Positions 12,120 through 63,773 of a DNA stretch of 64,000 nt are shown piece after piece. The DNA lies in assembly GCA_963845565.1 (NCBI GenBank), contig CAWJSJ010000005.1:640001-704000 (forward strand), written 5' to 3'. Within the stretch, counting starts at the first letter, position 1, and each line of letters starts with the position of its first letter. The notes below the pieces were generated by a model. The model made no database searches, was not told the origin of the DNA, and saw only the letters and a list, made by a program, of their open reading frames with translations. The DNA comes from an uncultured Methylomirabilota bacterium (GTDB taxonomy: Bacteria > Methylomirabilota > Methylomirabilia > Methylomirabilales > 2-02-FULL-66-22). The position numbers and the translations under genes were made by a program.

Positions 12120-12132
12120 CGAGGCGGGAGGA

Positions 12133-12310
12133 AAATCCGAAATCCGAAGCGCGAAATCCGAAGCAAATTCGAATGTTCAAAGGACACGACACTTTGAAAC
12201 AGTATGAGCGGGAAATACCCGCGGGGCGGTTCGCCGGTGCGGTGTTTTGAGCATTGTTCTCTTCGAGTTTCGGAATTGTTTCGGATTTCGAAATCCGGAT
12301 TTCGAGTTTT
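12133..12310. repeat. 7-bp-array inverted-repeat hairpin (empty copy 1)
   Basis: Left AAATCCG AAATCCG AAGCGCG AAATCCG AAGCAAA TTCGAATGTTCAAA; right ...TTGTTTCGGATTTCGAAATCCGGATTTCGAGTTT. Confidence 0.88.
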
Positions 12311-12335
12311 CGGCATATCATACGCGTGAAGACCA

Positions 12336-12490
12336 ATGGGTAATCAGACGATTTGGCAACTGGGCAATGGCAACTGGGCGATTTGGCGACTCGGGGCTGT
12401 GAACGGTGAAGGCTCGTTGGACCCACACCAAGTTGCCAGGTCGCCTAGTCGCCGAATTGCCCGATTGCCAAGTTGTCCGATTGCCAACCC
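12336..12490. repeat. 8-bp-array inverted-repeat hairpin (both arms, empty)
   Basis: GGCAACTG/GGCGATTT-type units facing AAGTTGCC/GAATTGCC/CGATTGCC-type units. Confidence 0.82.
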
Positions 12491-12532
12491 AGCGCTGAAC
12501 CAGGCAACGCAGCAGAACGAAGGAGGACCCGT

Positions 12533-24337: not shown

Positions 24338-24798
24338 AGACACTGAATCGGGAAGAGCAGCAGCTTCTTGCTGCATTCGAACGCGGGGCGTTGCGGTCGG
24401 TTATCACCTCGGAAGAAGCCCTGCGACGTTACCAGGAATACGCGCGGACAACGCTCGGCAAACCGCAGCGGGTGAACATCCGTCTCTCAGCCCAAACGCT
24501 GGCGGGCATTCGATCGCGCGCCGCCGAGGAGGGCATGCCATATCAGACGTTGATGGCCACCGTGTTGCATAAGCCGTTGTCAAAGAATTAGTTGAGCGGA
24601 GACATTCCGAAACGGCATAAGGAGCCGTAACGAAATAGAAAGAGATGTATAGGTTATTTCGTAACGGCTCCTAAGTACACGGCGGGCCGGCTGGTCGAGA
24701 AGCGGGCGGCACGATCCGCGCGGCCGAGCCGAGCACCTCGCAAGCGCGTCGCAGCGTGGGAATCATCTCTTCAGGCCGGAATCGCGTTTTGGGCATGA
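24334..24798 (+). pseudogene. BrnA/CopG-like RHH antitoxin interrupted by a MITE
   Basis: RVNIRLS...AAEEGMPYQTLM..VLHK; removing 24573-24674 restores HK-YTAGRLVEK in frame. Confidence 0.82.
24573..24671 (+). mobile_element. 99-bp composite MITE, copy 1
   Basis: TAA direct repeats at 24570-72 and 24672-74; internal GGAGCCGTAACGAAATA...TATTTCGTAACGGCTCC hairpin. Confidence 0.9.
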
Positions 24799-24942: not shown

Positions 24943-26550
24943 ATGAGGTTCGTGCGGATCGCGCTGGTGTCCCTGGTCATGGCAGCGGCTGCTCTGCTGC
25001 CGACGGGGAAGGCCGCGCACGCGCAGCAGAAACAACCCAACATCGTCATCATCTGGGGCGACGACATCGGCCAGTCCAATGTCAGCGCCTACTCGCACGG
25101 CCTGATGGGCTACAAGACGCCCAACATCGACCGCGTCGCCAAGGAAGGCATGATGTTCACCGACTACTACGCCGAGCAGAGCTGCACCGCCGGCCGGGCG
25201 TCGTTCATCACCGGCCAGTCGGGCTTGCGCACCGGCCTGACCAAGGTCGGCTTGCCGGGCGCGACGCTCGGGCTGCAGAAGGAAGACCCGACGATTGCCG
25301 AGCTGCTCAAGGCGCAAGGCTATGCGACCGGCCAGTTCGGCAAGAACCACCTGGGCGACCGCAACGAGTTCCTGCCCACCGTGCACGGCTTCGACGAGTT
25401 CTACGGCAACCTCTACCACCTGAACGCCGAGGAAGAGCCGGAACTGCCGGACTACCCGAAAGATCCCGGCGTTCCGCGCCAAGTTCGGACCGCGCGGCGT
25501 GATGGACTGCAAGGCCTCGGCCACGGACGACCCGACGGTGGACCCGCGCTTCGGCAAGGTCGGCAAGCAGGTCTGCAAGGACACCGGCCCGCTGACCAAG
25601 AAGCGGATGGAGACGATCGACGACGACATCGCCAACCGGGCCGTGGACTTCATCCAGCGGCAGAACAAGGCCGGCAAGCCGGCTTCGTCTGGGTGAACTT
25701 CACCCACATGCACTTCCGCACCCACACCAAGCCGGAGAGCATCGGCCAGTCGGGGCGCTGGCAGAGCCCGTACCACGACACCATGATCGACCACGACAAG
25801 AACGTCGGCAAGGTCCTCAAGGCGCTGGACGACCTGGGCATCGCGGACAACACCTTCGTCATGTACCGCACCGACAACGGCCCGCACATGAACACCTGGC
25901 CGGATGGCGCGATGACGCCGTTCCGCAACGAGAAGAACTCGAACTGGGAAGGCGCCTACCGGGTGCCGGCCATGGTCCGCTGGCCGGGCAAGATCAAGCC
26001 GGGCCAGGTGTCCAACGAGATGGTCGCCCACCTCGACTGGCTGCCGACCCTTCTGGCCGATCGCCGGCGACACGCAGGTGAAGGACAAGCTGCTCAAGGG
26101 CTACAAGGTCGGCGACATGACCTACAAGGTCCATCTCGACGGCGACAACCTCGTCCCCTACCTGACCGGGCAAGCCGCGAAGAGCCCGCGGGAATCGTTC
26201 CTGTACATCAACGACGACCAGCAATTGACCGGTCTGCGCTACGACAACTGGAAGCTCGTGTTCATGGAGCAGCGGGCCCAGGGAACGCTGCGCATCTGGG
26301 CGGAGCCGTTCACCACCTTGCGGGTTCCGAAGATCTTCAATCTCCGGACCGATCCGTACGAGCGCGCGGACATCACCTCGAACACCTACTACGACTGGCT
26401 GCTGGATCATGCCTTCATGCTCGTGCCCGCGCAGGACTACGTGGGCCAGTTCCTGATGACGTTCAAGGACTATCCGCAGCGGCAGAAGGCGGCCAGCTTC
26501 AACCTGGATGAAGTGATGGAGAAGCTGAAGGAAAGCGGGGGTCGAAGTAG
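24943..26550 (+). CDS. Secreted arylsulfatase 3 (CTAGR), frameshifted
   Basis: QPNIVIIWGDDIG, QSCTAGRA, GKNHLG; probable stop 26548-50 (as read the frame runs to 26635). Confidence 0.92.
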
Positions 26551-26678
26551 GACGGACGCTGTCGAGGCGCTGTCGGCTGAAGCGTCCGCGGCCGACCACG
26601 TACCTGACGCTCATCGCTGCGCACGCCACTTGTGAAGGCGCATCGGGTGAAACACCTGATCACACTGAAGAGTTCGCG

Positions 26679-28336
26679 ATGATGAAGACCGCCTGCACGC
26701 GGAGCCTCCTCGCCGCCGCGCTCGTCGTGCTGCTGGCGTTCACCGCCACTGATGCCCGCGCCGCCGACCCGCTGCCCTCGTGGAACGACGGCCCGGCGAA
26801 ACAGTCCATCATCGACTTCGTCGCGAAGGTCACGAAGGCCGGCTCGCCGGATTTCGTGCCGGTGCCGGAACGCATCGCCACGTTCGACAACGACGGCACG
26901 CTCTGGTGCGAGCAGCCGATGCCCGTTCAATTCTACTTCGCGCTCGACCGCGTGAAGGCGCTCGCGCCGCAGCATCCCGAATGGAAGACCAAGGAACCGT
27001 TCGCCTCGCTGCTCAAGGGCGATTTGAAAACCGCGCTCGCCGGCGGCGACCACGCGCTCCTCGAACTCATCATGGCCACGCACGCGGGCATGACCACGGT
27101 GGAATTCGAGCAGATCGTCAAGGACTGGATCGCGACCGCGAAGCATCCGAAGACCGGCAAGCTCTACACCGAAATGGTCTATCAGCCGATGCTCGAACTG
27201 CTCGCCTACCTGCGGGCGAACGGCTTCAAGAACTTCATCGTCTCCGGCGGCGGCATCGAGTTCATGCGCCCGTGGACGGAGCAGGTTTACGGCATCCCGC
27301 CGGAACAGGTCATCGGCAGCAGCATCAAGACGAAGTTTGAAATGCGCGACGGCAAGCCGGTGCTCGTGCGTCTGCCGGAGCTGAACTTCAATGATGACAA
27401 GGCCGACAAGCCCGTCGGCATCAACCAGCACATCGGCCGCCGGCCCATCGCCGCGTTCGGCAATTCCCGTGGCGACAAAGAAATGTTGGAATACACGCAG
27501 GGCGGCAGCGGCGCGCGGTTCGATGCTGCTGGTGCTGCACGATGATGCGGCGCGCGAATACGCCTACGGTCCGGCCCTGGGATTGCCGGACGTCAAACTG
27601 GGTGCGTTCACGCAGGCGGTTTACGACCAAGCGAAGAAGGATGGCTGGACCGTGGTCAGCATGAAGGACGATTGGAAACAGGTCTTCCCGTTCGGGCAGG
27701 CCCCGGTCACGGCCATTGACATCCTGCTGGAGCCGGACGCCACGATGCTCCAGCATTCCGCAGCCAACAACGCCCGCCTGCTCGCGGTCTTCCCGAAAGG
27801 TTTCGCCCTGGATGCGACGCACCGTCCGCACATCACGATGATCCAGCGTTTCGTCCGCACGGCGGACCTCGACCAGGTCTATGCCGCCGCCGGCAAGGTG
27901 CTCGCCCGCGCCAAGGTGACCGGCATGAAGCTGGAAGCCTTCAAATACTACTACATCCCGAGCAAGGACCATTGGCCTGGCGGGCATTGTCGCGAAGCCG
28001 ACCCCGGAATTGCTCAAGCTGCAAGCGGACCTGATTGCCGCCGTGGCCCCGTTCACGGTGGAAACCGGCGACTCGTCCGCGTTCGTCACCACGCCCGATG
28101 ATCCGATCATTGACCCGCTCTTGATCGAATACGTTTCGACGTTTGTTCCGAAGGCTTCCGGCGAGCATTTCAATCCGCACGTCACCACCGGCGTCGCCCT
28201 CCGGGAATACCTCGACCAAATGCTGGCCGAACCGTTTGAGCCGTTCACCTTCTCGCCCGCGGGCGCGGCCGTTTACCAGCTAGGCCAGTTCGGCACGGCG
28301 GCGAAGAAACTCAAAGAATGGGACTTGAAGCCTTGA
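26679..28336 (+). CDS. Secreted HAD hydrolase fused to a C-terminal 2H phosphoesterase domain, frameshifted
   Basis: FDNDGTLW, FGNSRGD; then PHITM and PHVTT (two HxT motifs). Confidence 0.85.
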
Positions 28337-28419
28337 GGCGCTCGAAGGCGAGTGGAAACAGCCGCCGATGCAGCGGGTCACATAGGCGAAGTCGCCTTGA
28401 GCGCTGACGTGATCTGGCC

Positions 28420-28478
28420 AGCTAACTCCCGCGTCCAGCGAACGGGGAGGTGCTGCCGCTGCCCGCTGAACGTTACGC
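28420..28478 (+). other. Degenerate attC-like site
   Basis: AGCTAAC...CGCGTCCAGCG...CGCTGCCCG...GTTACGC. Confidence 0.35.
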
Positions 28479-28849
28479 CTTCACGCCGCCGAAAGCCTTT
28501 CCATCCAGCGCCCAGATGCGGCCTTCCCAGGGAGCCAAGGGGGTCTCGTCTCGCACCCCCGGCACCCTACCCAGTGCCGATCACCTTCCATTACCTGCCG
28601 GTCGAGGAGGGAATGTTTTGCACAAGTAGGGACCCGTTCCCCCGGACTCAATCATCATGCTGTCGTCAATCATGGCGTGATTGATACGCAAAACCAATCG
28701 AGGAATCTTGGTGGGGAGGAGAGTGGGGCGACGCGCAGCGCTCGCCTGACACCAGTGGGGGATTCTGAGGTTTGCGCTCGGGCAGCGTGATGGTAAGATG
28801 CGCCCCTGATCGGCACGAGCCACGCGCCAAAAGAGGCGAGTCAGCTATC

Positions 28850-30279
28850 ATGGGACGGAAGAAGCAAGCCGACCGAAAGGGTGGGCGCTCCACGGACCTG
28901 TCACCACCGCCCGGCCCGACACAGGGTCCGGCGGCTCTGCAGCCGGGAACGTCCGAGGCCCCGCCCCCTCCGCCGAAAGAGAAGAAGCCCTCCGGCTTCA
29001 GCATGCTCCTGCTCCACGTTCACCCCAGGATGGTGCCGGAAGAGGCGCTCGCGTTCATGCGCACCTGTGGGCTCGGGGGCATGGCTGTGGTGCTCCTCGT
29101 TCTTCTCGCCGGCACGGGAGCGCTGCTCTTGCTGGCGTACGAGCCCTCCGCGGAGCGGGCGTACGGGTCGGTCCTGGGCCTGCGGGACGACACGGCCATC
29201 GGCGGCTTCGTGCGGAACATCCACTTCTGGGCGGCCAATAGCCTCGTCCTGGTGGCCGTTCCTGCATCTCCTGCGGGTCTTCTACACCGGGGCCTTTCAC
29301 GCGCCGCGACGATTCAACTGGGTCATCGGGCTGCTCCTGCTCAAACTGGTCCTGGCGTCCAACTTCACGGGCTACCTGCTCCCCTGGGACCAGCTCGCTT
29401 TCTGGGCCGTGACCATCGGCACGGGGATGCTGGAGTACGTCCCGCTGGTCGGCCCCACGCTGGAAACGGCGCTGCGGGGCGGGCCCGAGGTCGGGCCCAA
29501 GACCCTGTCCATCTTCTTCGTCCTGCACATCGCGATCCTGCCGATCCTGGGGGCCATCCTCGCCGCCTTTCACTTCTGGCTCGTCCGGAAGGCGGGTGGC
29601 GTCATCCTCCCGAGGCCCCCGGGGCCGGAACCCGCGCCTCGGCCCACGATGGTCCCCACCTCGCCGAATCTGGTGTTCCGCGAAATGGTGGTGGCCCTCG
29701 TTCTGGTGGCGGGTGTGCTCCTCACCGCCGCGGTCTTCGATGCGCCGCTCCTGGCGCAGGCGAATCCGGGCATGAGCCCGAACCCGGCCAAGGCCCCGTG
29801 GTATTTCATGGGGATCCAGGAGCTTCTGGTCCATCTGCACCCGGCTTTCGCCGTCCTGGCGGTGCCGATGCTGGTGGTGGCCTTCCTGGTGTTTCTACCC
29901 TACCTGAACTACGGCGAGACCCCCTCGGGCCTCTGGTTCCACTCGGCCAATGGGCGGCGCACGGCCCTGGTGGCCGCGGGGACGGCCCTGGTGGCAGTGC
30001 CCGCCGGCATCCTCACTACCGAGTATGTGCTGAGCCTCCCGAAGCTGCTTGCCGTTCCTGCCCCCGGCCGTGAGCACCGGCCTGCTTCCCACGGGGGTGC
30101 TGGCGCTCCTGGTGGTGGGGTTCTTCGGACTGAACCGGTGGCGGTTCACGGCCTCCCGGATCGAGGCGATCCAGGCGGTGTTCACGCTGTTGACGGTGGG
30201 GTTCGTGGTGCTCACGGTGACCGGGGTGTTCTTCCGAGGCACGGCCATGCGGCTCACCTGGCCGTGGCTGGCAAAATGA
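28850..30279 (+). CDS. Cytochrome b (b6 + subunit IV-like, fused), frameshifted
   Basis: [51 protein letters not shown]. Confidence 0.92.
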
Positions 30280-30368
30280 CCAATTGCCAATGTTCAAAAT
30301 GTTCTTGTTCCTCAGGGTAAAGACTGTGCGCGGCATGGCCACACATTCATTCACAATCAGACGGGCAT

Positions 30369-30506
30369 AAATCCGAAGCACGAAAATCGAAATTCGAAAC
30401 AATCTCAAATGGCCAAATGCCAACTGTCCTAAACGGGTGAGTTGAGAGATTGTGAATTCTGAAAATTTGAATTTGTCTCGGATTTCGATATTCGAATTTC
30501 GGATTT
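30369..30506. repeat. 7-bp-array inverted-repeat hairpin (empty copy 2)
   Basis: AAATCCG AAGCACG AAAATCG AAATTCG AAACAA ... TTGTCTCGGATTTCGATATTCGAATTTCGGATTT. Confidence 0.88.
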
Positions 30507-30516
30507 CTGAGGAGTC

Positions 30517-31029
30517 ATGGATAGCGAAAAGGCTGCAGCAGTGGAAACGAAGGCCGGGGCCTCGCGGCGGGATTATCTGAGGACCGCGTGGAAGGTTCTC
30601 GGCCTGGTGGCCGCCGCCGAGTTCGCGACCGTGCTGGTGGCCTACCTCTGGCCCCGCGCCAAGGGGGAGGGCGATACACGGGTGGCGGTGGTTGAGGCCG
30701 GCCCCGTCGCCGAGTTCACGCCGGCCTCGGTGACGGCCTTCCCCAAGGGGCGTTTCTACCTGGTCCGGCTCGCCGACGGGGGGTTCCTGGCGCTCTCCAG
30801 CCGATGTTCGCACCTGGGCTGTTCGGTCCCCTGGAATGAGAAGACCCAGACGTTTCCGTGTCCGTGCCACGCGTCCGTGTTCGACATGACCGGCAACGTC
30901 GACAGTCCGCCGGCGCCCCGCGCCCTGGACCTCTTCCCTGTGCGCATCGAGAGCGGCGTCGTGAAAGTGGACACGCGGAACCGGGTCCAGCGGCAGCGCT
31001 TCGAGCGCTCCCAGGTGACGTATCTGTGA
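30517..31029 (+). CDS. Rieske iron-sulfur protein
   Basis: SRRDYL Tat-like anchor, CSHLGC, CPCHAS. Confidence 0.95.
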   Translation: MDSEKAAAVETKAGASRRDYLRTAWKVLGLVAAAEFATVLVAYLWPRAKGEGDTRVAVVEAGPVAEFTPASVTAFPKGRFYLVRLADGGFLALSSRCSHLGCSVPWNEKTQTFPCPCHASVFDMTGNVDSPPAPRALDLFPVRIESGVVKVDTRNRVQRQRFERSQVTYL

Positions 31030-31042
31030 GAACCCGGGGGGA

Positions 31043-31543
31043 AAACTCGAAATTCGAATATCGAAACCCGAAATTCGAAGCAAGCATCAATGTCCAAAAG
31101 AACTGAAGGATCGAAACGGTACGACTTGGAAGAGCGTACCTTGCAGTTTGCGAAGGACGTCCGGGCGTTTGTAAAGGCGTTGCCGCGGACGATCGCGAAT
31201 GAGCAGGATATTCAGGCAGCTCGTGAGAGCATCGGGCTCGGTGGGGGCGAACTACATCGAAGCAAACGAGTCCCTCAGCAAGAAAGACTTTGTGATGCGC
31301 ATCAAGATCTCTCGGAAGGAAGCGAAAGAAAGTCGGTACTGGCTTCGGCTGCTCGACACAGGGGAAAATGATTCGATCGACAAGACTCGGGACGCACTGA
31401 TCCAGGAAGCGACCGAGTTGATGAACATCTTCGGCGCAATCGTGCGTAAGAGCGAATGACCCGTTTCACCGATTGCCGTTTTCGAATCTCGCACTTCGAG
31501 CTTCGAATTTGTTTCGAGTTTCGAAATTCGAGTTTCGGATTTG
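31043..31543. mobile_element. 7-bp-array inverted-repeat element carrying a four-helix-bundle gene
   Basis: Left arm 31043-31095 and right arm 31478-31543, same units as the four empty copies. Confidence 0.8.
31090..31459 (+). CDS. Four-helix-bundle protein (23S rRNA IVP / Avd-like family), one indel near 31210
   Basis: YDLEERTLQFA, QLVRASGSVGANYIEA, KEAKESRYWLRLL, EATELMNIF. Confidence 0.93.
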
Positions 31544-31550
31544 GGTTCTC

Positions 31551-33983
31551 ATGACTGACGCCGGACCTGCGAAGACCGGGAACGACACCACGCAAAGCCC
31601 CCTGCGTCGCTGGGAGGTCGTGGGGGTGCTGGCGACCCTGGCCATCGTCCTCACCGTGCCGCTCCGCCTGGCCGTGGTGGCCGCCCGCGGCCCGCAGCAG
31701 CCCGGCCGCACCGCGGCGCTCTACGTCGGCAGCGACGCGTGCAAGTCTTGCCACCAGGGGGCATACGAGAAGTGGCGCGGCTCGAACCACGCCCTGGCGA
31801 TGGCTCCGGCCCGCGAGGACACCGTCCTGGGCGACTTCAACAATGCCACCTTCACGGAGAAGGGGAAGACGACCCGGTTCTCACGAAGAGACGGGAAGTA
31901 CCTCGTCAACACCGAGGGCCCCGACGGCAAGCCTGGGGAGTTCGAGGTGGCTTACACCTTCGGGTGGTTCCCGCTCCAGCAATACCTCATCCCATTTCCC
32001 GGCGGGCGGCTGCAGTCCCTCACCATCGCCTGGGACGTCCAGAAGAAGCGCTGGTACTCGCTGTACCCCGACCAGGTCGTTCCCCCGACGGACTGGCTCC
32101 ACTGGACCCGGCCGGCCCAGAACTGGAACGTGATGTGCTCGGAGTGCCACTCCACGGGAGTCCGCAAGCGGTACGATCCGGAGCACGACACCTACCAGAC
32201 CACCTGGAGCGAGATCTCCGTGGGTTGCGAGGCCTGCCATGGGCCGGGCTCTCTGCACGTGGAATGGGCCAAGGCGCCGCCCATGGCCCGGCTGTCGGTG
32301 GAGAACTTCGCGCTCCCGGTGAAGACGTCCGGACTGGTCAACCGGGACCTGGTAAACCTGTGCGGCCCCTTGTGCCACGCGCGACGCAGCGGGCTCCGGG
32401 ACCAAGAGCGGCCGGGCGGGGAGCCGCTCGACGTCGTCCTCCCCGTTCTCCTCAGCCCGGGGTTGTTCTATCCCGACGGGCAGATTCTGGAGGAGGATTA
32501 CGAGTATCACTCGTTCCTCCAGAGCAAGATGTATGCGAACGCGGTGAAGTGCAGCGACTGCCACGACGTCCACACGGCCAAGCGGCACAAGGAAGGGAAC
32601 GACCTGTGCGTCCGCTGCCACCGGGCGGACACCTACGACACGGATACGCACCACTTCCACAAGAAGGTCGTCAAGGGACGGCCCAGCGAAGGGGCGTCCT
32701 GCCCTGCCTGCCACATGCCCGGGCGCAACTACATGGGGATCCATTTCCGGCGGGACCACAGCCTGCGGGTACCGCGCCCGGACCTCTCCGTCCAGATCGG
32801 GACGCCCAACGCGTGCAGCTCGTCCGGCTGTCACGCCGACAAGCCGCTGCGCTGGGTCGTGGAGGCGTACAACAAGTGGTACGGCGTCAAGCGCAAGCCC
32901 CACTACGGGACGGTCCTGGCCGCCGCCCGCGAGCGGAAGCCCGAGGCCAGAGGAGATCTGCTGGAGCTGGCCGCTGACCGCCTGCGGCCCGCCATCGTCC
33001 GTGCCACGGCCCTGGACCTCCTCTGGGTCTATCCCGGCGAAGACAGCACGCGCCTGCTCCAGCAGGCCCTGGCGGACGAGGATTCCCTGATCCGCCGCAC
33101 GGCGGCACACCATGTCCGGTTCGCGGATCCGAAGCCGTTGGTCAACGTCCTGGCCCCGCTGCTCAAGGATCCCACGCTGGCCGTCCGGATTGAGGCGGTC
33201 TCGCGGCTGGCCGAGGTGCCGCAGACGTTCTTCACGGAGGCTCAGGCGCGAGATTTCAAGAGCGGCCTGGAGGAATACCGGAAGGTCCTGGCGTACACCG
33301 CGGACATGCCCTCCGGTCGCTACAACTGGGCGATCCTGGAGCAGAATCTGGCCCGGCCGGACCTGGCGGAGCAGCAGTACCGCAAGGCCCTGGCCATTGA
33401 CGATCAGTTCTTCCCGGCTCAGGCGAATCTCGCCTTGCTCCTGAACCGGCAGGGCAAGAACGCCGAGGCGGAGCAGCTTCTGAAGGCGGCCCTCAAAGCG
33501 AACCCCAGGAACGCCGGCGTGGCCTTCAACCTGGGGCTGCTCTTGGCAGAGGAGGGGAAGACGGCCGAGGCGGAAACCGCCCTCCGGACCGCCCTGAAGG
33601 CCGATCCCCAGATGGCGCCGGCCGCCTACAACCTGGCGGTCCTCGTCGCCCCCAAGAATCTCGCGGAAGCGCTGGAGCTGAGCCGGAGGGCGGCGGCGCT
33701 TCGCCCCGAGGAGCCTCGATACGCCTTCACGCTTGCCTTCTACCAGCGCCAGCGGGGCGACGCGCCGGCAGCCATGACGACGCTGCAGGCGCTCCTCGCA
33801 CGCCACCCCGCCTACGGGGAGGCCTACCTGCTCCTCGGTGAGCTCTACGTCAAGGCGAGCAAGGTGCCGGAAGCCCGACAGCTCTTCGCGCGGGCCCTGG
33901 AGGTGAAAGAGCTACCCGATGCGTACCGGACCCGGATCGCGTCGCTGCAGCAGAACCTCGCGGGGTCGGATGCGAAGCAGTGA
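31551..33983 (+). CDS. Membrane-anchored multiheme cytochrome c with HEAT and TPR repeats
   Basis: Six CxxCH (CKSCH, CSECH, CEACH, CSDCH, CVRCH, CPACH) plus CGPLCH and CSSSGCH; C-terminal TPRs. Confidence 0.92.
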   Translation: MTDAGPAKTGNDTTQSPLRRWEVVGVLATLAIVLTVPLRLAVVAARGPQQPGRTAALYVGSDACKSCHQGAYEKWRGSNHALAMAPAREDTVLGDFNNATFTEKGKTTRFSRRDGKYLVNTEGPDGKPGEFEVAYTFGWFPLQQYLIPFPGGRLQSLTIAWDVQKKRWYSLYPDQVVPPTDWLHWTRPAQNWNVMCSECHSTGVRKRYDPEHDTYQTTWSEISVGCEACHGPGSLHVEWAKAPPMARLSVENFALPVKTSGLVNRDLVNLCGPLCHARRSGLRDQERPGGEPLDVVLPVLLSPGLFYPDGQILEEDYEYHSFLQSKMYANAVKCSDCHDVHTAKRHKEGNDLCVRCHRADTYDTDTHHFHKKVVKGRPSEGASCPACHMPGRNYMGIHFRRDHSLRVPRPDLSVQIGTPNACSSSGCHADKPLRWVVEAYNKWYGVKRKPHYGTVLAAARERKPEARGDLLELAADRLRPAIVRATALDLLWVYPGEDSTRLLQQALADEDSLIRRTAAHHVRFADPKPLVNVLAPLLKDPTLAVRIEAVSRLAEVPQTFFTEAQARDFKSGLEEYRKVLAYTADMPSGRYNWAILEQNLARPDLAEQQYRKALAIDDQFFPAQANLALLLNRQGKNAEAEQLLKAALKANPRNAGVAFNLGLLLAEEGKTAEAETALRTALKADPQMAPAAYNLAVLVAPKNLAEALELSRRAAALRPEEPRYAFTLAFYQRQRGDAPAAMTTLQALLARHPAYGEAYLLLGELYVKASKVPEARQLFARALEVKELPDAYRTRIASLQQNLAGSDAKQ

Positions 33984-33986
33984 TCG

Positions 33987-34026
33987 GGCGAATTGGCAAT
34001 TCGGCAATTGGGCAACTTGGCGATCG
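33987..34026. repeat. 8-bp array, left arm of cargo-bearing element
   Basis: GGCGAATT GGCAATTC GGCAATTG GGCAACTT GGCGATCG. Confidence 0.85.
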
Positions 34027-50059: not shown

Positions 50060-50067
50060 CGAAAAAT

Positions 50068-50228
50068 GAAGCACGAAATCCGAAGCTCGAAACTCGAAAC
50101 AAAAGGCAATGTTCAAAAGGGCTGAAGGTTTTAAACGGAGGGCCAACGCGGAGGGGGTTTCGGTTTTCGGCTATTTCCACGGTCGGATTGAATGCGTTTC
50201 GAATTTCGACATTCGAGTTTCGAATTTT
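50068..50228. repeat. 7-bp-array inverted-repeat hairpin (empty copy 3)
   Basis: AAGCACG AAATCCG AAGCTCG AAACTCG AAACAAA..AATGTTCAAA; right GTTTCGAATTTCGACATTCGAGTTTCGAATTT. Confidence 0.88.
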
Positions 50229-50249
50229 GGGGGTGAGAGAGGACCAACC

Positions 50250-52890
50250 ATGGTGCGTCGGAGAGGTGCCACAGCGATCGCGTTCATTTTCATCGGCTGG
50301 CTAATGGGGATCGGTGCCGCCCGGGTGCACACCGCCACGGGGGCCACCCCGGTTGGGGACCAATGGCCGCGGGAGTTCAAGCTCACCAATGCCACGCTGC
50401 TCGTGTACCAGCCGCAGGTCAACTCGCGGGAAGGGAACCTGCTCGACTTCGGGCGGCGGTGGGTGTCAAGCCGGCCGGATCTGAGGCCGGGAGATGTTCG
50501 GCGTGATCTGGGCGAACGGCGCGGACACAGGTGGACAAAGTCGCGCGGATGGTGACCCTGGAAGACGTCACCCTGAGCAAGAGCCAGTTCCCCATGCTTC
50601 CCGACAACGGAGTCCGCGTACACGAGCGCGTTGCGGAAGCAGATGGCAAGCCACCGCCGCAGCGGACCATCGCGTTGGACCGCCTGGAGGCGTCGTTGGC
50701 CGCCTCCGGCACCGCGACGCCTGCGGGCGTCCCGGTGAACACCACGCCGACCGCGGATCCTCGTCAGCTACGCGCCGGCGCTCCTCGTGCATATTGACGG
50801 CCCTCCCGTCCTGCGGCCGATCCCCGGTACGCGGTTCGAGCGGGTCATCAACACCCAGGCGCTCATCCTGCGCGAGCAGGGCAGCACAACCTATCTATCC
50901 TCCACGTCTACGACGGCTGGCTCTACGCCGGCGCGATCGACGGGGCCTTGGTGCCAGCCGATGGTCATTCCGCCGGGCATCGATCAGGTCGCCGGCGAGC
51001 TGGCCGAAGGCGGGATGGTGGACCTGATAGACGGCGGGGACGCGCAGCCCAAACCGTCGCTCGCGCACGGGCGTGCCGACGATCTACGTGAGCGAGACCC
51101 CGACGGAGCTCATCGTCGTTCAAGGGGCAGCCCGAACTTTGCGGCCATCGCGGGGACGAGCCTGCACTGGGCGTCGAACACGGCGACGACGTGATCTTCG
51201 AACGCGCGGACAAGAGCTACTATGTCCTCGTATCCGGCCGCTGGTACCGCAGTCGCGGCCCTCGGCGGCCCGTGGGACTATGTGGCGAGCCCGAGCCTCC
51301 CGGCCGACTTCGGCCGGATCCCGGCGACCTCGCCGGCCGGCGTGGTGCTCGCGGCCGTGGCCGGGACCCCGCAGGCCCAGGAGGCCGTCATCGCCAACTC
51401 GATTCCCCAGACGGCGACGGTGCCACGCGTGAACGGACCGAAGTTCACTCCGGTCTTTGACGGCGACCCCGCAGCTCCAGGCCGATCGAGGGCACGCCGC
51501 TCGAGTACGTCGTCAACGTCCCCGACGCCGGTCATCCGAGTGGACGCCGGGACGTACTACTCGCTCCAGGCCGGCGTCTGGTTCTACGCGATCTCGCTCA
51601 GCGGCCCGTGGTACGTGGCGCCGGCCGTGCCCGCGGTGATCTACACCATCCCCGTCACCTCGCCGCTGCACTACGTGACGTACGTGCACGGTGTACGGGT
51701 CGACGACGCAGGTGGTCTATGTCGGCTATACGCCCGGGTACCTGGGCACGGTGGTCGCGCCGGGCGGCGTGGTCGTGTACGGCACGGGGTACGTCTATCA
51801 GCCGTGGATCGGCACCGTCATGGTATCCTCCGCCGGTCACCTACGGCGTGATGGCGCAGCCCGTCTACAATCCCGGCGGTGGGGATGACCTTCGGTTTCG
51901 CCATGGGCGTTGCCACGGCGTCGGCGGTGTACGGCATGGGGCGCCGTCCCCTATTACCACCCGGCCTACTACGGGGGCTATCCCTGCTGCGGCTCGGCCA
52001 GCGCCAACGTGTACGGGCAGTACGGCAGCACGGCGTATTCGGGGACCCGGAGCGTACTACAGCAACGGCCGGCGGGACGGTACGGGACCACGGCCAGCGG
52101 GACCTATCACAATTACGCCACCGGCACGAGCGGCAGCTATGCGGCCGGGCGGAGCTACAATCCGTACACGGGGCAGGCGGTCGGCGGGCTACGGGCGCAC
52201 GTTCAATACTCCCAGTGGCGTTTCGACGGGGGCGGTCGCGCGCGGTGCCACGTATAACCCGCAGACCGGCACCGCCACGACCGGCACCGCCGGCACGGCC
52301 ACCGGACCGGGCGGTCGTTCCACGACCTCGGCGGAAGCGACGCGCTCGGCCAACGTCTACGGGCAACAATCGGCCCAGGCCGAGCATGCGACCACGAACC
52401 CGAACACGGGGACCACGCGGACCGGCGAGACCACGGCAGCCGCCGGCCCTGGAGGGGCGGCGCGCCCAGCACACGACCACGGTCGTCCGACTCGAACACC
52501 GGCCAGTCGAAGACGTTCTCGCTCCGGCGCGGGCGTCATGCCGGCAACACGGCATACGCAGACCACAACGGCAACGTCTACACGAGCAGCAGTAGCGGTT
52601 GGGAGCAGCATTCCTCCGGCGGCTGGCAGAGCGCCAGCAAGCCGCCCGAGTCGGTTCAGAACGAGTGCCGCGGCCCGCAGCCAGGGCGAAGAGAGATTTC
52701 AATAACTTCAAGCAGAGCGGCGGTGGAGTGCGTGGAGCTGGGCCAGTCGGGCGGGGGAGGAGCGACTGGGCCAGCCGATCCGGCGGCAGCAGTTGGCAGG
52801 TTCGGTGGCGGCGGAGGCGGGGGCGGGTCGACCGGTGGTGGGCTGGGGCGGCCGCTTGGTGGTGGCGGGAGGTTTGGTGGCCGACGGTGA
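50250..52890 (+). CDS. Large secreted protein with Tyr/Gly/Thr-rich and Gly/Arg-rich C-terminal regions, heavily frameshifted
   Basis: WPREF..LLVYQPQ, LVHIDGPP, YYVLVSGRWY, IYTIPVTSPLHYVTYV, VGYTPGYLG. Confidence 0.75.
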
Positions 52891-52921
52891 ACAGCTGGAA
52901 ACCGCGAAACGAGGAAATATA

Positions 52922-53047
52922 CATCCGAAATCCGAATCTCGAAATCCGAAGCAAGTATCAATGTTCACAGTTCGAAAGGAGCGAATGATCCGTTTTGCAC
53001 ATTGCCGCTTTCGGATTTGAATTTGGATTTCGTTTTCGAATTTGTGC
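52922..53047. repeat. 7-bp-array hairpin (copy 4), deletion derivative of the four-helix-bundle element
   Basis: GAAGCAAGTATCAATGT...GAGCGAATGATCCGTTT..ATTGCCGCTTTCG matches both gene boundaries at 31077-31093 and 31450-31484. Confidence 0.88.
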
Positions 53048-53096
53048 TTTGCGTTGGACTGGATATTCGGCATCAGGGCGGCAAATGGAGCCAACC

Positions 53097-53785
53097 ATGA
53101 GATTGCAACCCTTCATCCTGGCGGCCTGCTGGTCATCGGCTTTTCGCAGCACGCCTCGGCCCAGGGTGCCCCGTCCGGTAACATGCAGATGGCGGCCCAG
53201 ATCACCGAGGCGCGCAGGGCGCAACGCCACCCTGATGCGCCAGTACACCTGGAACAGCCGCACGGAGGTGATCGAGAATAACGAAGTCAAGGATACGCGC
53301 ATCGAACTGGTCAATTACACTCCCGACGGCATGCTGGTGCGGAGCGTCCTCAACGACCAGAGCGCGTCCTTACCGCGCGGCTTCCTGCGCCGTGCCATCG
53401 CCGAGGACCAGAGGAAAAATTGGAGGACTATCTGACCGACTTGCGGGGTCTCCTCGAGCAGTACGCGAATCCGACGGAAGGGAAGATTCTCGACTTCTTG
53501 AATCAGGCCACGACCTCCGGCCCGGATGCTGCTGGGCTCTTCGAGATGACCGGGCGAAATGCCATGGTCCCGGGCGACACCCTCTCCATGTGGACGGACG
53601 CACGAACCAGGCACACGCGCAAGATTCAGGTCAGCACCAACTATAAAGGCGATGCGGCGAACGTCACGGCCACGTTCCAGACCCTCGCCAGCGGGCTGAC
53701 CTACATGGCCTATGCCGAGATCGCCGTCCCTTCCAGGCAGGTGAGTGTGCAGGTCCAGAACTTCAACTATACGCGCCCAAACTGA
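53097..53785 (+). CDS. Secreted hypothetical protein, frameshifted
   Basis: ANATLMRQYTWNSRTE-like, PGDTLSMW, TFQTLASGLTY, VQNFNY. Confidence 0.7.
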
Positions 53786-53849
53786 TCCTGACGAGCGCGT
53801 GGCCTGGCCGGAACTGCGCCAAGTACAATGCGTGAAAGGAGAGCGTGAC

Positions 53850-62317: not shown

Positions 62318-62538
62318 CGGCTGAGCACGCACGTCCTCGCGGCGTTCTCTGGCTAGCCCGGCGGACCCGGTGTGATATGGGCACCGATAAGCCGTCGAGG
62401 TTTCGCCCTGAATGCCCGGATCGTTAACTCACGTTATTCGTGAACACGACTCGCGAATCCTGTTTCGCGTTTGGTCATTGCTCATTCGACCCATGACATT
62501 CACGAATCCTTCGTGAATTTTGTGGGTCAGGTCCGTTA

Positions 62539-62634
62539 GGAGCCGTTACGAAATAACCTATACATCTTCTATTTCGTTACGGCTCCTTATGCCGTTTCGG
62601 AATGTCTCCGCTCAACTAATTCTTTGACAATGGC
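62539..62634 (-). mobile_element. Composite MITE, copy 2 (inverted)
   Basis: Reverse complement of 24573-24671 with a 3-bp deletion and one substitution; TTA direct repeats at 62536-38 and 62635-37. Confidence 0.9.
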
Positions 62635-63434: not shown

Positions 63435-63656
63435 ATGATCGGTTCTCTGAGTCGAAACCTCGTGCTGTTTGCGGTGTGTTGCTTCCTCCTGCTCGGCGCC
63501 GCGGCCTGCGGCGGCGGCGGGGCCGAGGTGCGGAGCGAGGTCACGACGACCACCACCGGACAGCAACTCATGGACCTCAAGAAAGCGCTGGATTCCGGCG
63601 CCATGACCCAGCAGGAGTACGAGAAAGAGCGCAAGAAGGTCCTGGAGCGGCAATAA
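63435..63656 (+). CDS. SHOCT-domain lipoprotein
   Basis: AAAC lipobox; TGQQLMDLKKALDSGAMTQQEYEK. Confidence 0.88.
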   Translation: MIGSLSRNLVLFAVCCFLLLGAAACGGGGAEVRSEVTTTTTGQQLMDLKKALDSGAMTQQEYEKERKKVLERQ

Positions 63657-63718
63657 GCCGTTGTCAGGGAGCCGTAACGAAATTAACAAAATCAGACCAG
63701 TGATTTCGTCGAGGCTCC
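63657..63718 (+). mobile_element. Composite MITE, copy 3 (short variant)
   Basis: GCCGTTGTCA + GGAGCCGTAACGAAAT...ATTTCGTCGAGGCTCC, flanked by TAA at 63654-56 (stop codon) and 63719-21. Confidence 0.82.
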
Positions 63719-63773
63719 TAATCTGCGGGGTCCCGCTCTGATGGGAAGCACCTTCTCCCTCGTGCATTGCCGT

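Follow-up and report, generated by a model that had tools for sequence, protein, structure and literature searches.

How does a small gene for a four-helix-bundle protein come to lie between two genes of a respiratory operon, enclosed by two arms that are complementary to each other? The question is raised by positions 31042 to 31543 of a 64,000-nucleotide (nt) stretch of an uncultured Methylomirabilota bacterium (GenBank assembly GCA_963845565.1, contig CAWJSJ010000005.1, positions 640,001 to 704,000), which as a whole is called the window here. The layout given in a preliminary description of this DNA holds: a four-helix-bundle gene of the family PF05635 stands between a Rieske gene and a cytochrome c gene, with complementary arms on both sides. 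We consider it probable, with moderate confidence, that the locus is a copy of a widespread cassette in which a PF05635 gene and inverted arrays of CGAAATY heptamers occupy the space from the Rieske stop to the cytochrome c start, likely a selfish insert transcribed with the operon, its arms predicted to pair.

The arms themselves stand out clearly from their surroundings. Positions 31043-31073 pair with 31512-31542 (31 nt, 84% complementary) and 31071-31081 with 31500-31510 (11 of 11). When the 150 nt upstream of the gene are compared with the 150 nt downstream, read as their reverse complement, the cassette reaches an arm score of 30; at 1170 control positions with this geometry elsewhere in the window the median is 11 and the maximum 24, and none of them reaches 30.

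Evidence that gene and arms belong together comes from relatives in a species-representative genome collection, which was searched by tblastn with the whole open reading frame (ORF) of the locus on contig C34 of genome G009. The search gave 582 tblastn-confirmed relatives, and the best 80 (56-72% identical) were kept. These best 80 span more than ten phyla, with representatives in Planctomycetota, Thermodesulfobacteriota, Pseudomonadota, Verrucomicrobiota, Acidobacteriota, Nitrospirota, Chlorobiota, Bacteroidota, Chloroflexota, Omnitrophota, several Patescibacteria and others. The ORF could be placed at 76 of the 80 loci and both flanks at 71, and 891 position controls were drawn from the same loci. 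Arms lie above the 95th percentile of the controls at 63 of the 71 testable loci and above the 99th at 59, so that the claim of a gene packaged in its own arms withstood the comparison with its homologues.

The arms of the relatives are also related in sequence, with CGAAATY units, an inner box (...CGAAACAAAT...) and sharp outer ends (AAATYCGAA... on the left and ...TTCGRATTT on the right), and variant units (CTAAA or ACAAA) occur on both arms together. On the protein tree, which is poorly resolved (54 of 74 forks open), arm-unit type changes 9 times, compared with 14.3 times when the labels are shuffled (0 of 200 shuffles as low). The hosts are mixed on this tree, as exemplified by a pair from Desulfobacteraceae and Dehalococcoidales with common CTAAA arms. 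Arm type is thereby shown, as far as tree and alignments reach, to follow the protein and not the host. Other PF05635 subfamilies within the same order have arms of their own, built of GGTCAGC, CGTAAGG or CGATGAC heptamers. At the level of sequence comparison, a PF05635 gene together with its heptamer arms is thus shown to be one unit, widespread in bacteria, which supports the earlier proposal of a 'loaded' unit with the short hairpins nearby as its gene-less relatives.

The unit has, in addition, a characteristic placement. At the 65 loci with both flanks readable, 44 cassettes run in the same direction as both neighbours and 5 in the direction opposite to both, as judged by crude ORF calling. 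Where the termini are well defined (36 loci), units measure about 500 bp (median) and contain only the four-helix-bundle gene. The median distance from the upstream stop to the left terminus is 0 nt (25 of 27 within 20 nt, and 9 overlapping by 2 nt), and that from the right terminus to the next start is 14 nt (23 of 33 within 20 nt); the corresponding distances in the window, 12 nt from the Rieske stop and 7 nt to the cytochrome c ATG, fit this pattern. Across the genomes compared, the cassettes are shown to be co-oriented with their neighbours and to fill the stop-to-start spacer. In viral contigs, 26 pattern matches were obtained and 0 tblastn relatives, with a single-sequence query that finds close relatives only.

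A particularly instructive junction is that between a membrane-fusion-type gene and a gene for a resistance-nodulation-division (RND) pump, taken from relative L083 (Candidatus Brocadia carolinensis) and followed in 30 related genomes, with the occupants listed in Table 1. The second subfamily found there belongs to PF05635 (E 1e-26), carries AGTTGKM arms and has no BLASTP similarity to the first. The flanks of G083 and G076, which hold this other cassette type, are 90-92% identical to those of L083, and the flanks of G084, which holds the cassette type of L083 itself, are 77% identical; since the former are the closer, cassette type does not follow flank similarity. This comparison, made on flank similarity, is taken as evidence for turnover of cassettes at one junction. 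In G075 (contig C1, locus L123, about 1647241-1650255) a 3-kb insertion interrupts the cassette gene.

Within the window, the cassette is accompanied by four gene-less elements, A, B, D and E. When the element ends served as blastn query against the bacterium's own genome, five related elements were the only ones recovered, all of them between 12 and 53 kb of the window, and a single short array elsewhere. Element B has arms of 45 nt (30366-30410 and 30465-30509, 80% complementary) and aligns to the left half of the cassette; element E has a predicted fold which, taken alone, is not distinguishable from shuffles. In an alignment of the five left halves and the cassette on contig C46 of G009, A-A-T-G is invariant, and the reported retention of an AATG motif in the gene-less copies is borne out. 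Their description as 'empty' copies has to be abandoned. The gene-less hairpins in the window, as well as the site in genome G022 described below, keep pieces of the ends of the gene, and hence they are deletion remnants of loaded cassettes and not empty acceptor sites.

The same decay can be followed at orthologous sites. The Rieske-cytochrome c junction with the cassette is present twice in G009, on contigs C34 and C46, and a third orthologous copy lies on contig C380 of G022. On C34, a +1 and then a +2 indel leave a whole 123-aa ORF with about nine scrambled residues; on C46 the cassette gene is broken into pieces; in G022, where the flanks are 83-86% identical, the arms and about 25 nt of the 5' end of the gene are left and the rest is lost. 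The gene is therefore not a conserved member of the operon, an objection that the preliminary description had itself raised, for it is gutted at the orthologous site in G022. As read from these alignments, a decay series from whole gene to arms only is shown in the window and at two orthologous sites. The spacer between the cytochrome b and Rieske genes is likewise variable: it contains element B here and another repeat in G009:C34 and G022, but is empty in G009:C46. The orthologous sites of element A are not comparable, as the matches in G009 and G008 end at the element or diverge before it. On G009:C46 (locus L111) the left arm and ATG box of element D are kept and the next 3.7 kb are missing relative to 50134-53830 of the window, that is, a Pro/Gly/Thr-rich ORF, element E and one more gene, after which comes a FadL/TodX-type gene; this comparison of D and E is uninformative about insertion. 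Since the genome has a single gene, whose integrity is doubtful, and the four remnants, all within 41 kb, we infer that the cassette family is dying out here; the present copy is an ordinary and probably decaying member of its class.

Table 1. Coordinates and occupants of the cassette locus, its remnants and neighbouring genes in the window, and of the Brocadia-type site in related genomes
Feature	Position or site	Strand	Detail
Left arm	31042..31081	+	Five 7/8-nt CGAAATY-type units (31042-31077), then inner box ending just before the ATG
Four-helix-bundle gene, PF05635/TIGR02436	31090..31459	+	123 aa when read without the extra base near 31214
3' spacer, stop codon to right arm, 17 nt	31460..31476	+	In relatives often mirrors the ATG and first codons
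Right arm	31477..31543	+	About nine RATTTCG-type units, complement of left arm; ends 7 nt before cytochrome c ATG
Element A, gene-less remnant: arms and ATG-proximal piece	12122..12320	+	RNA fold z -3.7
Element B, gene-less hairpin in cytochrome b-Rieske spacer, inner AATG box kept	30366..30509	+	RNA fold z -4.9
Element D, remnant with about 30 nt of the 5' coding end of the gene	50062..50250	+	RNA fold z -1.9
Element E, remnant: ATG box, last three codons and stop, 3' spacer	52920..53060	+	RNA fold z -1.3
Cytochrome b gene, first of operon	28881..30279	+	PF13631, E 2.7e-37
Rieske [2Fe-2S] gene	30517..31029	+	PF00355, E 5.3e-11; TGA at 31027-31029
Multihaem cytochrome c gene, TPR/HEAT C-terminal half	31551..33983	+	Pfam Cytochrome_C554, Cytochrom_c3_2 and TPR families
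Whole cassette of query type	Brocadia-type site		G066, G071, G084
Query-type decay stages	Brocadia-type site		G079, G072, G073; G075 with a further 3-kb insert
Query-type decay stages	Brocadia-type site		G082, last codons and right arm; G081, arms only; G085, start and last eight codons
Cassette of different PF05635 subfamily	Brocadia-type site		G083, G076, G078, G092
Other repeats	Brocadia-type site		G086, G088
Bare 8-nt spacer	Brocadia-type site		G087

What kind of protein the cassette encodes is well supported, in spite of a gene that is split in the assembly. As assembled, the gene consists of a 93-aa and an 86-aa piece in two frames, the first 41 codons being read in frame 1 from the ATG at 31090. 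The frame 2 piece (31199-31459) matches PF05635 (E 9.5e-12, 45.5 bits against a cut-off of 33.8) and TIGR02436 (E 2.5e-17, 63.1 bits against a cut-off of 24), and the whole ORF of G009:C34 reaches 53.7 bits with TIGR02436. This is the only PF05635 match in the genome, none lying in a 23S rRNA helix, and the gene has a GC content of 53.5% in comparison with 68% in the flanking genes. An AlphaFold2 model with the G009:C34 orthologue as target and an alignment of 73 sequences has a mean predicted local distance difference test score (pLDDT) of 86.6 and a predicted template modelling score (pTM) of 0.80, and its top Foldseek matches are 2RLD, 2GSC, 4DWL (the retroelement protein Avd) and 8UB7; the earlier attribution of the protein to the fold of Avd and of proteins from intervening sequences is thereby backed. 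The sequence match to 2RLD, a structure of five chains, has E 8.2e-9, and the Xanthomonas protein is described as a homopentamer in the available text of a paper on the Coxiella burnetii intervening sequence (PMC4990558). Neither PADLOC nor PHROGs gave a match to the protein, nor did Pfam beyond PF05635.

The split itself is probably an assembly error or a very recent lesion and not a feature of the element, since other contigs lack the extra base and the neighbouring genes switch frame as well. Base 31214 is missing in the X1 metagenome contig (1 of 1, with 2 other differences in 157 nt) and in one X5 contig (depth 2.3 of 4.4), and without it the reading frame is continuous and matches both a conserved motif of G009:C46 and the family consensus; the one X5 contig that covers base 30045 of cytochrome b also leaves that base out. 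The frame track from GC content at third codon positions changes frame at least five times from 26.5 to 31.5 kb, and cytochrome b is read in three frames with switches near 29.2 and 30.0 kb, which points to frequent single-base indel errors in this part (26500-31500) of the assembly. A programmed frameshift was rejected on the same two grounds. A HAD-like gene at 26679-28336 reads in three frames, like cytochrome b, and the four-helix-bundle gene in two. The cassette locus is contained in contigs from four independent metagenome studies. DNA contig joints that skip the gene (31066>31512 in X4; 31083>31502 and 31275>31430 in X5) were not counted as evidence: their sides are short, at 85% likeness, and they may derive from other loci or other organisms.

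How such a unit could persist inside an operon is suggested by its predicted RNA structure. When positions 31020-31560 are folded, the arms form one terminal stem (minimum free energy -192.8 kcal/mol, z -2.9, 0 of 100 shuffles as good), which recurs in the centroid fold and spans the distance from the Rieske stop to the cytochrome c start, both codons lying in the stem base. The cassette would be transcribed with the operon, and in the transcript a stem of about 55 bp would, on this fold, place the upstream stop beside the downstream start, so that the host genes stay expressed. By analogy with rRNA intervening sequences, the stem is also a predicted substrate of RNase III, for which a gene is present in the genome. 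The 3' spacer is a mirror image of the ATG and first codons at 27 of 73 loci, as judged by comparing the first 24 coding nt with the reverse-complemented 45 nt that follow the stop and taking the 95th percentile of internal-coding controls as threshold; at such loci the stem would include the start of the cassette gene itself. Movement would take place as DNA, by a mechanism without reverse transcriptase. As every protein subfamily goes with a heptamer of its own, the product of the cassette's only gene is proposed to recognise the heptamer arrays specifically, and cutting and joining would be supplied by some other activity.

Terminal inverted repeats are present as in a transposon or a miniature inverted-repeat transposable element (MITE), and the unit holds no transposase. 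The statement that no mobility enzyme lies in the window stands for 35 of the 59 selected ORFs, in which Pfam gave no transposase, integrase or reverse transcriptase; the other 24 were outside that scan. No direct repeat was found outside the termini in the 38 loci listed, where A/T-rich termini could hide a duplication of 1-2 nt, and no target-site duplication was seen between the empty and filled forms of the Brocadia-type site.

Several other explanations have to be weighed against a selfish cassette moving as DNA. The preliminary description had proposed an element that resembles an mRNA intervening sequence or is mobilised by RNA. If it were an RNA-mobilised retroelement, an Avd-like protein and a reverse transcriptase acting in trans would have the excised hairpin RNA copied into new sites. 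The fold does match Avd in ribonucleoprotein structures of diversity-generating retroelements (DGRs; 4DWL and 8UB7), according to the text available of one survey no other Pfam family occurs beside DGR reverse transcriptases as often as PF05635 (PMC10053308), and the cassettes are co-oriented with host transcription. The reverse transcriptase domain RVT_1 occurs in 17 of 32 PF05635-bearing relatives and in 2 of 9 without the family, a weak association in which genome size and kinship are uncontrolled. Against these points, RVT_1 has 0 matches in this 98.7%-complete genome and is absent from 15 of the 32 carriers, including G011 with ten copies at 93% completeness; the transition mismatches of the arms show no sense-strand G-U bias (100 of G-U type and 109 of A-C type at 55 loci); and no pair of template and variable repeats was noticed in the repeat listing of 30250-31600, which was not a dedicated search. 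RNA mobilisation by a reverse transcriptase partner is accordingly unlikely, and of the original interpretation it is the unit and its likeness to intervening sequences that endure, whereas RNA mobilisation lacks support and the 'empty' copies are remnants. An element domesticated by its host, with a stem that serves as regulatory or processing signal for the ratio between Rieske and cytochrome c, and a small protein acting as accessory factor of the respiratory operon, is judged somewhat less likely still. It would explain why both the Rieske stop and the cytochrome c start lie inside the predicted stem, why three of the four orthologous copies have retained the locus and why a second, compensating indel restored the reading frame on G009:C34. 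The same cassette, however, is found among unrelated genes across more than ten phyla and has a foreign base composition here; it is gutted in G022 and broken on G009:C46, and the distant cytochrome b-Rieske-cytochrome c operon of G052 has a plain spacer of about 130 nt.

It could also be argued that the heptamer hairpins are a MITE-like repeat family of their own and that a four-helix-bundle gene merely landed in one of them, given that gene-less hairpins outnumber the gene four to one in this genome, that solo arrays occur at about 20 further sites, and that the summed depth of the arms in metagenome contigs is 10-500 times that of the flanking genes. This is difficult to reconcile with the arms around the gene at 59 of 71 loci from different phyla, with arm types that track both protein tree and protein subfamily, and with gene-less copies that retain the coding ends of the gene, and we regard it as very improbable. 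Chance low-complexity sequence or an assembly artefact, for which the frame switches in 5 kb of the assembly might speak, is for practical purposes refuted by the control positions in the window and by the presence of the locus in G009 (on two contigs), in G022 and in contigs from the four metagenome studies.

The reading of the locus as a mobile, selfish cassette has weak points of its own. At 8 of the 71 loci the arms do not exceed the 95th percentile of the controls, and the placement at stop and start codons could reflect selection on survivors rather than targeting. No target motif was seen, and no duplication either; the term 'mobile' would describe the distribution, as no mobility event was caught. 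The arms pair better with their own partners (24.4 of 28) than with swapped ones (15.0), a contrast that is partly circular because arms were chosen by pairing, and with no sense-strand G-U bias in them nothing shows that the RNA stem itself is under selection. Finally, this genome has a single gene of the family, and hence no statement on activity here is possible.

The host operon, in 5' to 3' order, comprises cytochrome b, a 237-nt AT-rich spacer, Rieske, the cassette and the multihaem cytochrome c with its TPR/HEAT tail. A scan of 28500-32000 returned 0 promoter-like sites and three terminator-like sites, where 3.2 are expected by chance; two of them lie upstream near 29.0 kb and the third inside the four-helix-bundle gene on the minus strand (31289-31269), with none on the plus strand within 31030-31550. 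Rfam, at E up to 1 over 30200-31650, gave only three matches to microRNA models, far below threshold. The operon was found in only four of 66 genomes of the order, and a Rieske protein at E 1e-25 or better is likewise found in four of the 66, so that comparators are few; distant cytochrome c homologues in G015, G026, G033, G036 and G027 have no upstream Rieske gene within the locus. A haem-binding motif of the cytochrome c at 32360-32380 reads C-G-P-L-C-H here and C-A-P-C-H in G009:C46, either a three-base insertion or an assembly problem. The wider region from 7700 to 48300 looks accessory, with at least six sulfatase-domain ORFs, two MscS-type channels, a fused DctP-Q-M transporter and two DUF2092 genes.

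Other repeats were observed in and around these loci. A second hairpin family with TTGGCAA/TTGCCAA-type heptamer arms lies at 12340-12500, directly beside element A, and short arrays of this type follow the stops of cytochrome b (30280-30300) and cytochrome c (33985-34012); these hairpins may be remnants of another cassette subfamily with no gene left in the genome. A MITE-like family bounded by GCTGAAAAAGGCCC... and ...CCTTTTTGAGCAGCCTGC occupies the cytochrome b-Rieske spacers of G009:C34 (L012) and G022:C380 (L013), and in the bacterium's own genome (C2:2204100 and C5:748880) its members have a TTCGAAA-type array in the interior. Solo TTCGAAA-type arrays stand at C2:128313 and C2:129332, directly after the stops of two tandem paralogous genes for substrate-binding proteins. 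A small palindromic repeat with GGAGCCGTTACGAAAT-type arms has three copies, at 24600-24690, 62520-62600 and 63650-63720, in both orientations.

Among known systems, the closest likeness is to the ORF-bearing intervening sequences of 23S rRNA, as had been proposed, and the architecture matches: in both, the loop holds an ORF of this protein family that tends to decay, terminal inverted repeats make up a long stem, and the element has no enzyme of its own. Such an ORF-bearing 23S intervening sequence was reportedly described in Leptospira by Ralph and McClelland in 1993, a report known to us as cited in the paper on Coxiella. The available text of that paper gives for the helix-45 intervening sequence of Coxiella burnetii a 28-bp terminal stem, tandem GACAGAT heptamers before the start of S23p, excision by RNase III and a decaying ORF, and it quotes the old idea of the intervening sequence as a mobile element (PMC4990558). 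Tandem heptamers directly before the ATG are thus common to both, GACAGAT there and CGAAATY here. Unlike the 23S sequences, the cassette lies between protein-coding genes of an operon, its arms are wholly heptamer arrays, and RNase III excision, shown for the former, is here a prediction.

The resemblance to Avd of the DGR of Bordetella phage BPP-1 is one of fold (Foldseek probability 1.00, TM score 0.63-0.70) and of Pfam family, as noted in the available part of the DGR survey (PMC10053308), whereas the genome here has no reverse transcriptase, the gene is solitary and wrapped in arms, and no template or variable repeats were noticed. Like MITEs and REP-type (repetitive extragenic palindromic) repeats, the elements are short, carry inverted repeats, lie at gene junctions, give rise to gene-less copies by internal deletion and have no end duplication that could be seen; unlike MITEs, their parent has no transposase, only a helical protein of 120 aa, and the arms are tandem heptamer arrays. 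Integron cassettes, too, are promoterless single-gene units co-oriented with host transcription, and different cassettes can occupy one site, as at the Brocadia-type junction, but the units described here have two inverted arms in place of an attC-type single site, no integrase or platform, and ordinary operon junctions as their location. Finally, direct repeats of the heptamer TAACTGA are reported at operon junctions in Beggiatoaceae, Cyanobacteria and Bacteroidetes (PMC4679880, available text), and they share with the cassette arms the form of heptamer arrays at operon-internal junctions near start codons and the occurrence in distant phyla. They differ in that they are described as direct repeats, and the text available of that paper does not connect them with this protein family, containing neither 'helix bundle' nor 'intervening sequence' nor '23S' (PMC4679880). 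An excess of heptameric repeats has been noted as well (PMC4692102, text available in part). The literature searched, with most subscription journals outside the search, holds no description of PF05635 genes in heptamer arms outside rRNA, and the widespread cassette class is thus apparently undescribed outside rRNA.

A broader reading takes in the unrelated subfamilies as well and is offered only tentatively, as a possibility less probable than the cassette reading of this locus. It holds that four-helix-bundle proteins and their subfamily-specific arms would constitute a new class of transposase-less mobile cassettes that homes to the stop-start junctions of operons, that unrelated subfamilies can replace each other at one and the same junction, and that the stem keeps the host genes functionally adjacent. 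The intervening sequences of 23S rRNA, together with much of the still unexplained load of heptamer repeats in bacterial genomes, would then be its by-products and corpses.

Among the small bacterial proteins that still lack an explanation, those of PF05635 are some of the commonest, and both the origin of the rRNA intervening sequences and the excess of 7-base repeats in bacterial genomes are puzzles that are decades old. If the preferred reading is true, and gene and arms are one insertable unit, these three problems merge into a single testable one, namely whether the protein recognises the heptamer array that belongs to it and which activity cuts and joins the DNA. The placement rule (left end at the stop, right end about 14 nt before the start) and a site common to two unrelated subfamilies provide experimental handles. 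For genome annotation it would mean that many 'intergenic hairpins' and mini-ORFs are the remnants of such cassettes.

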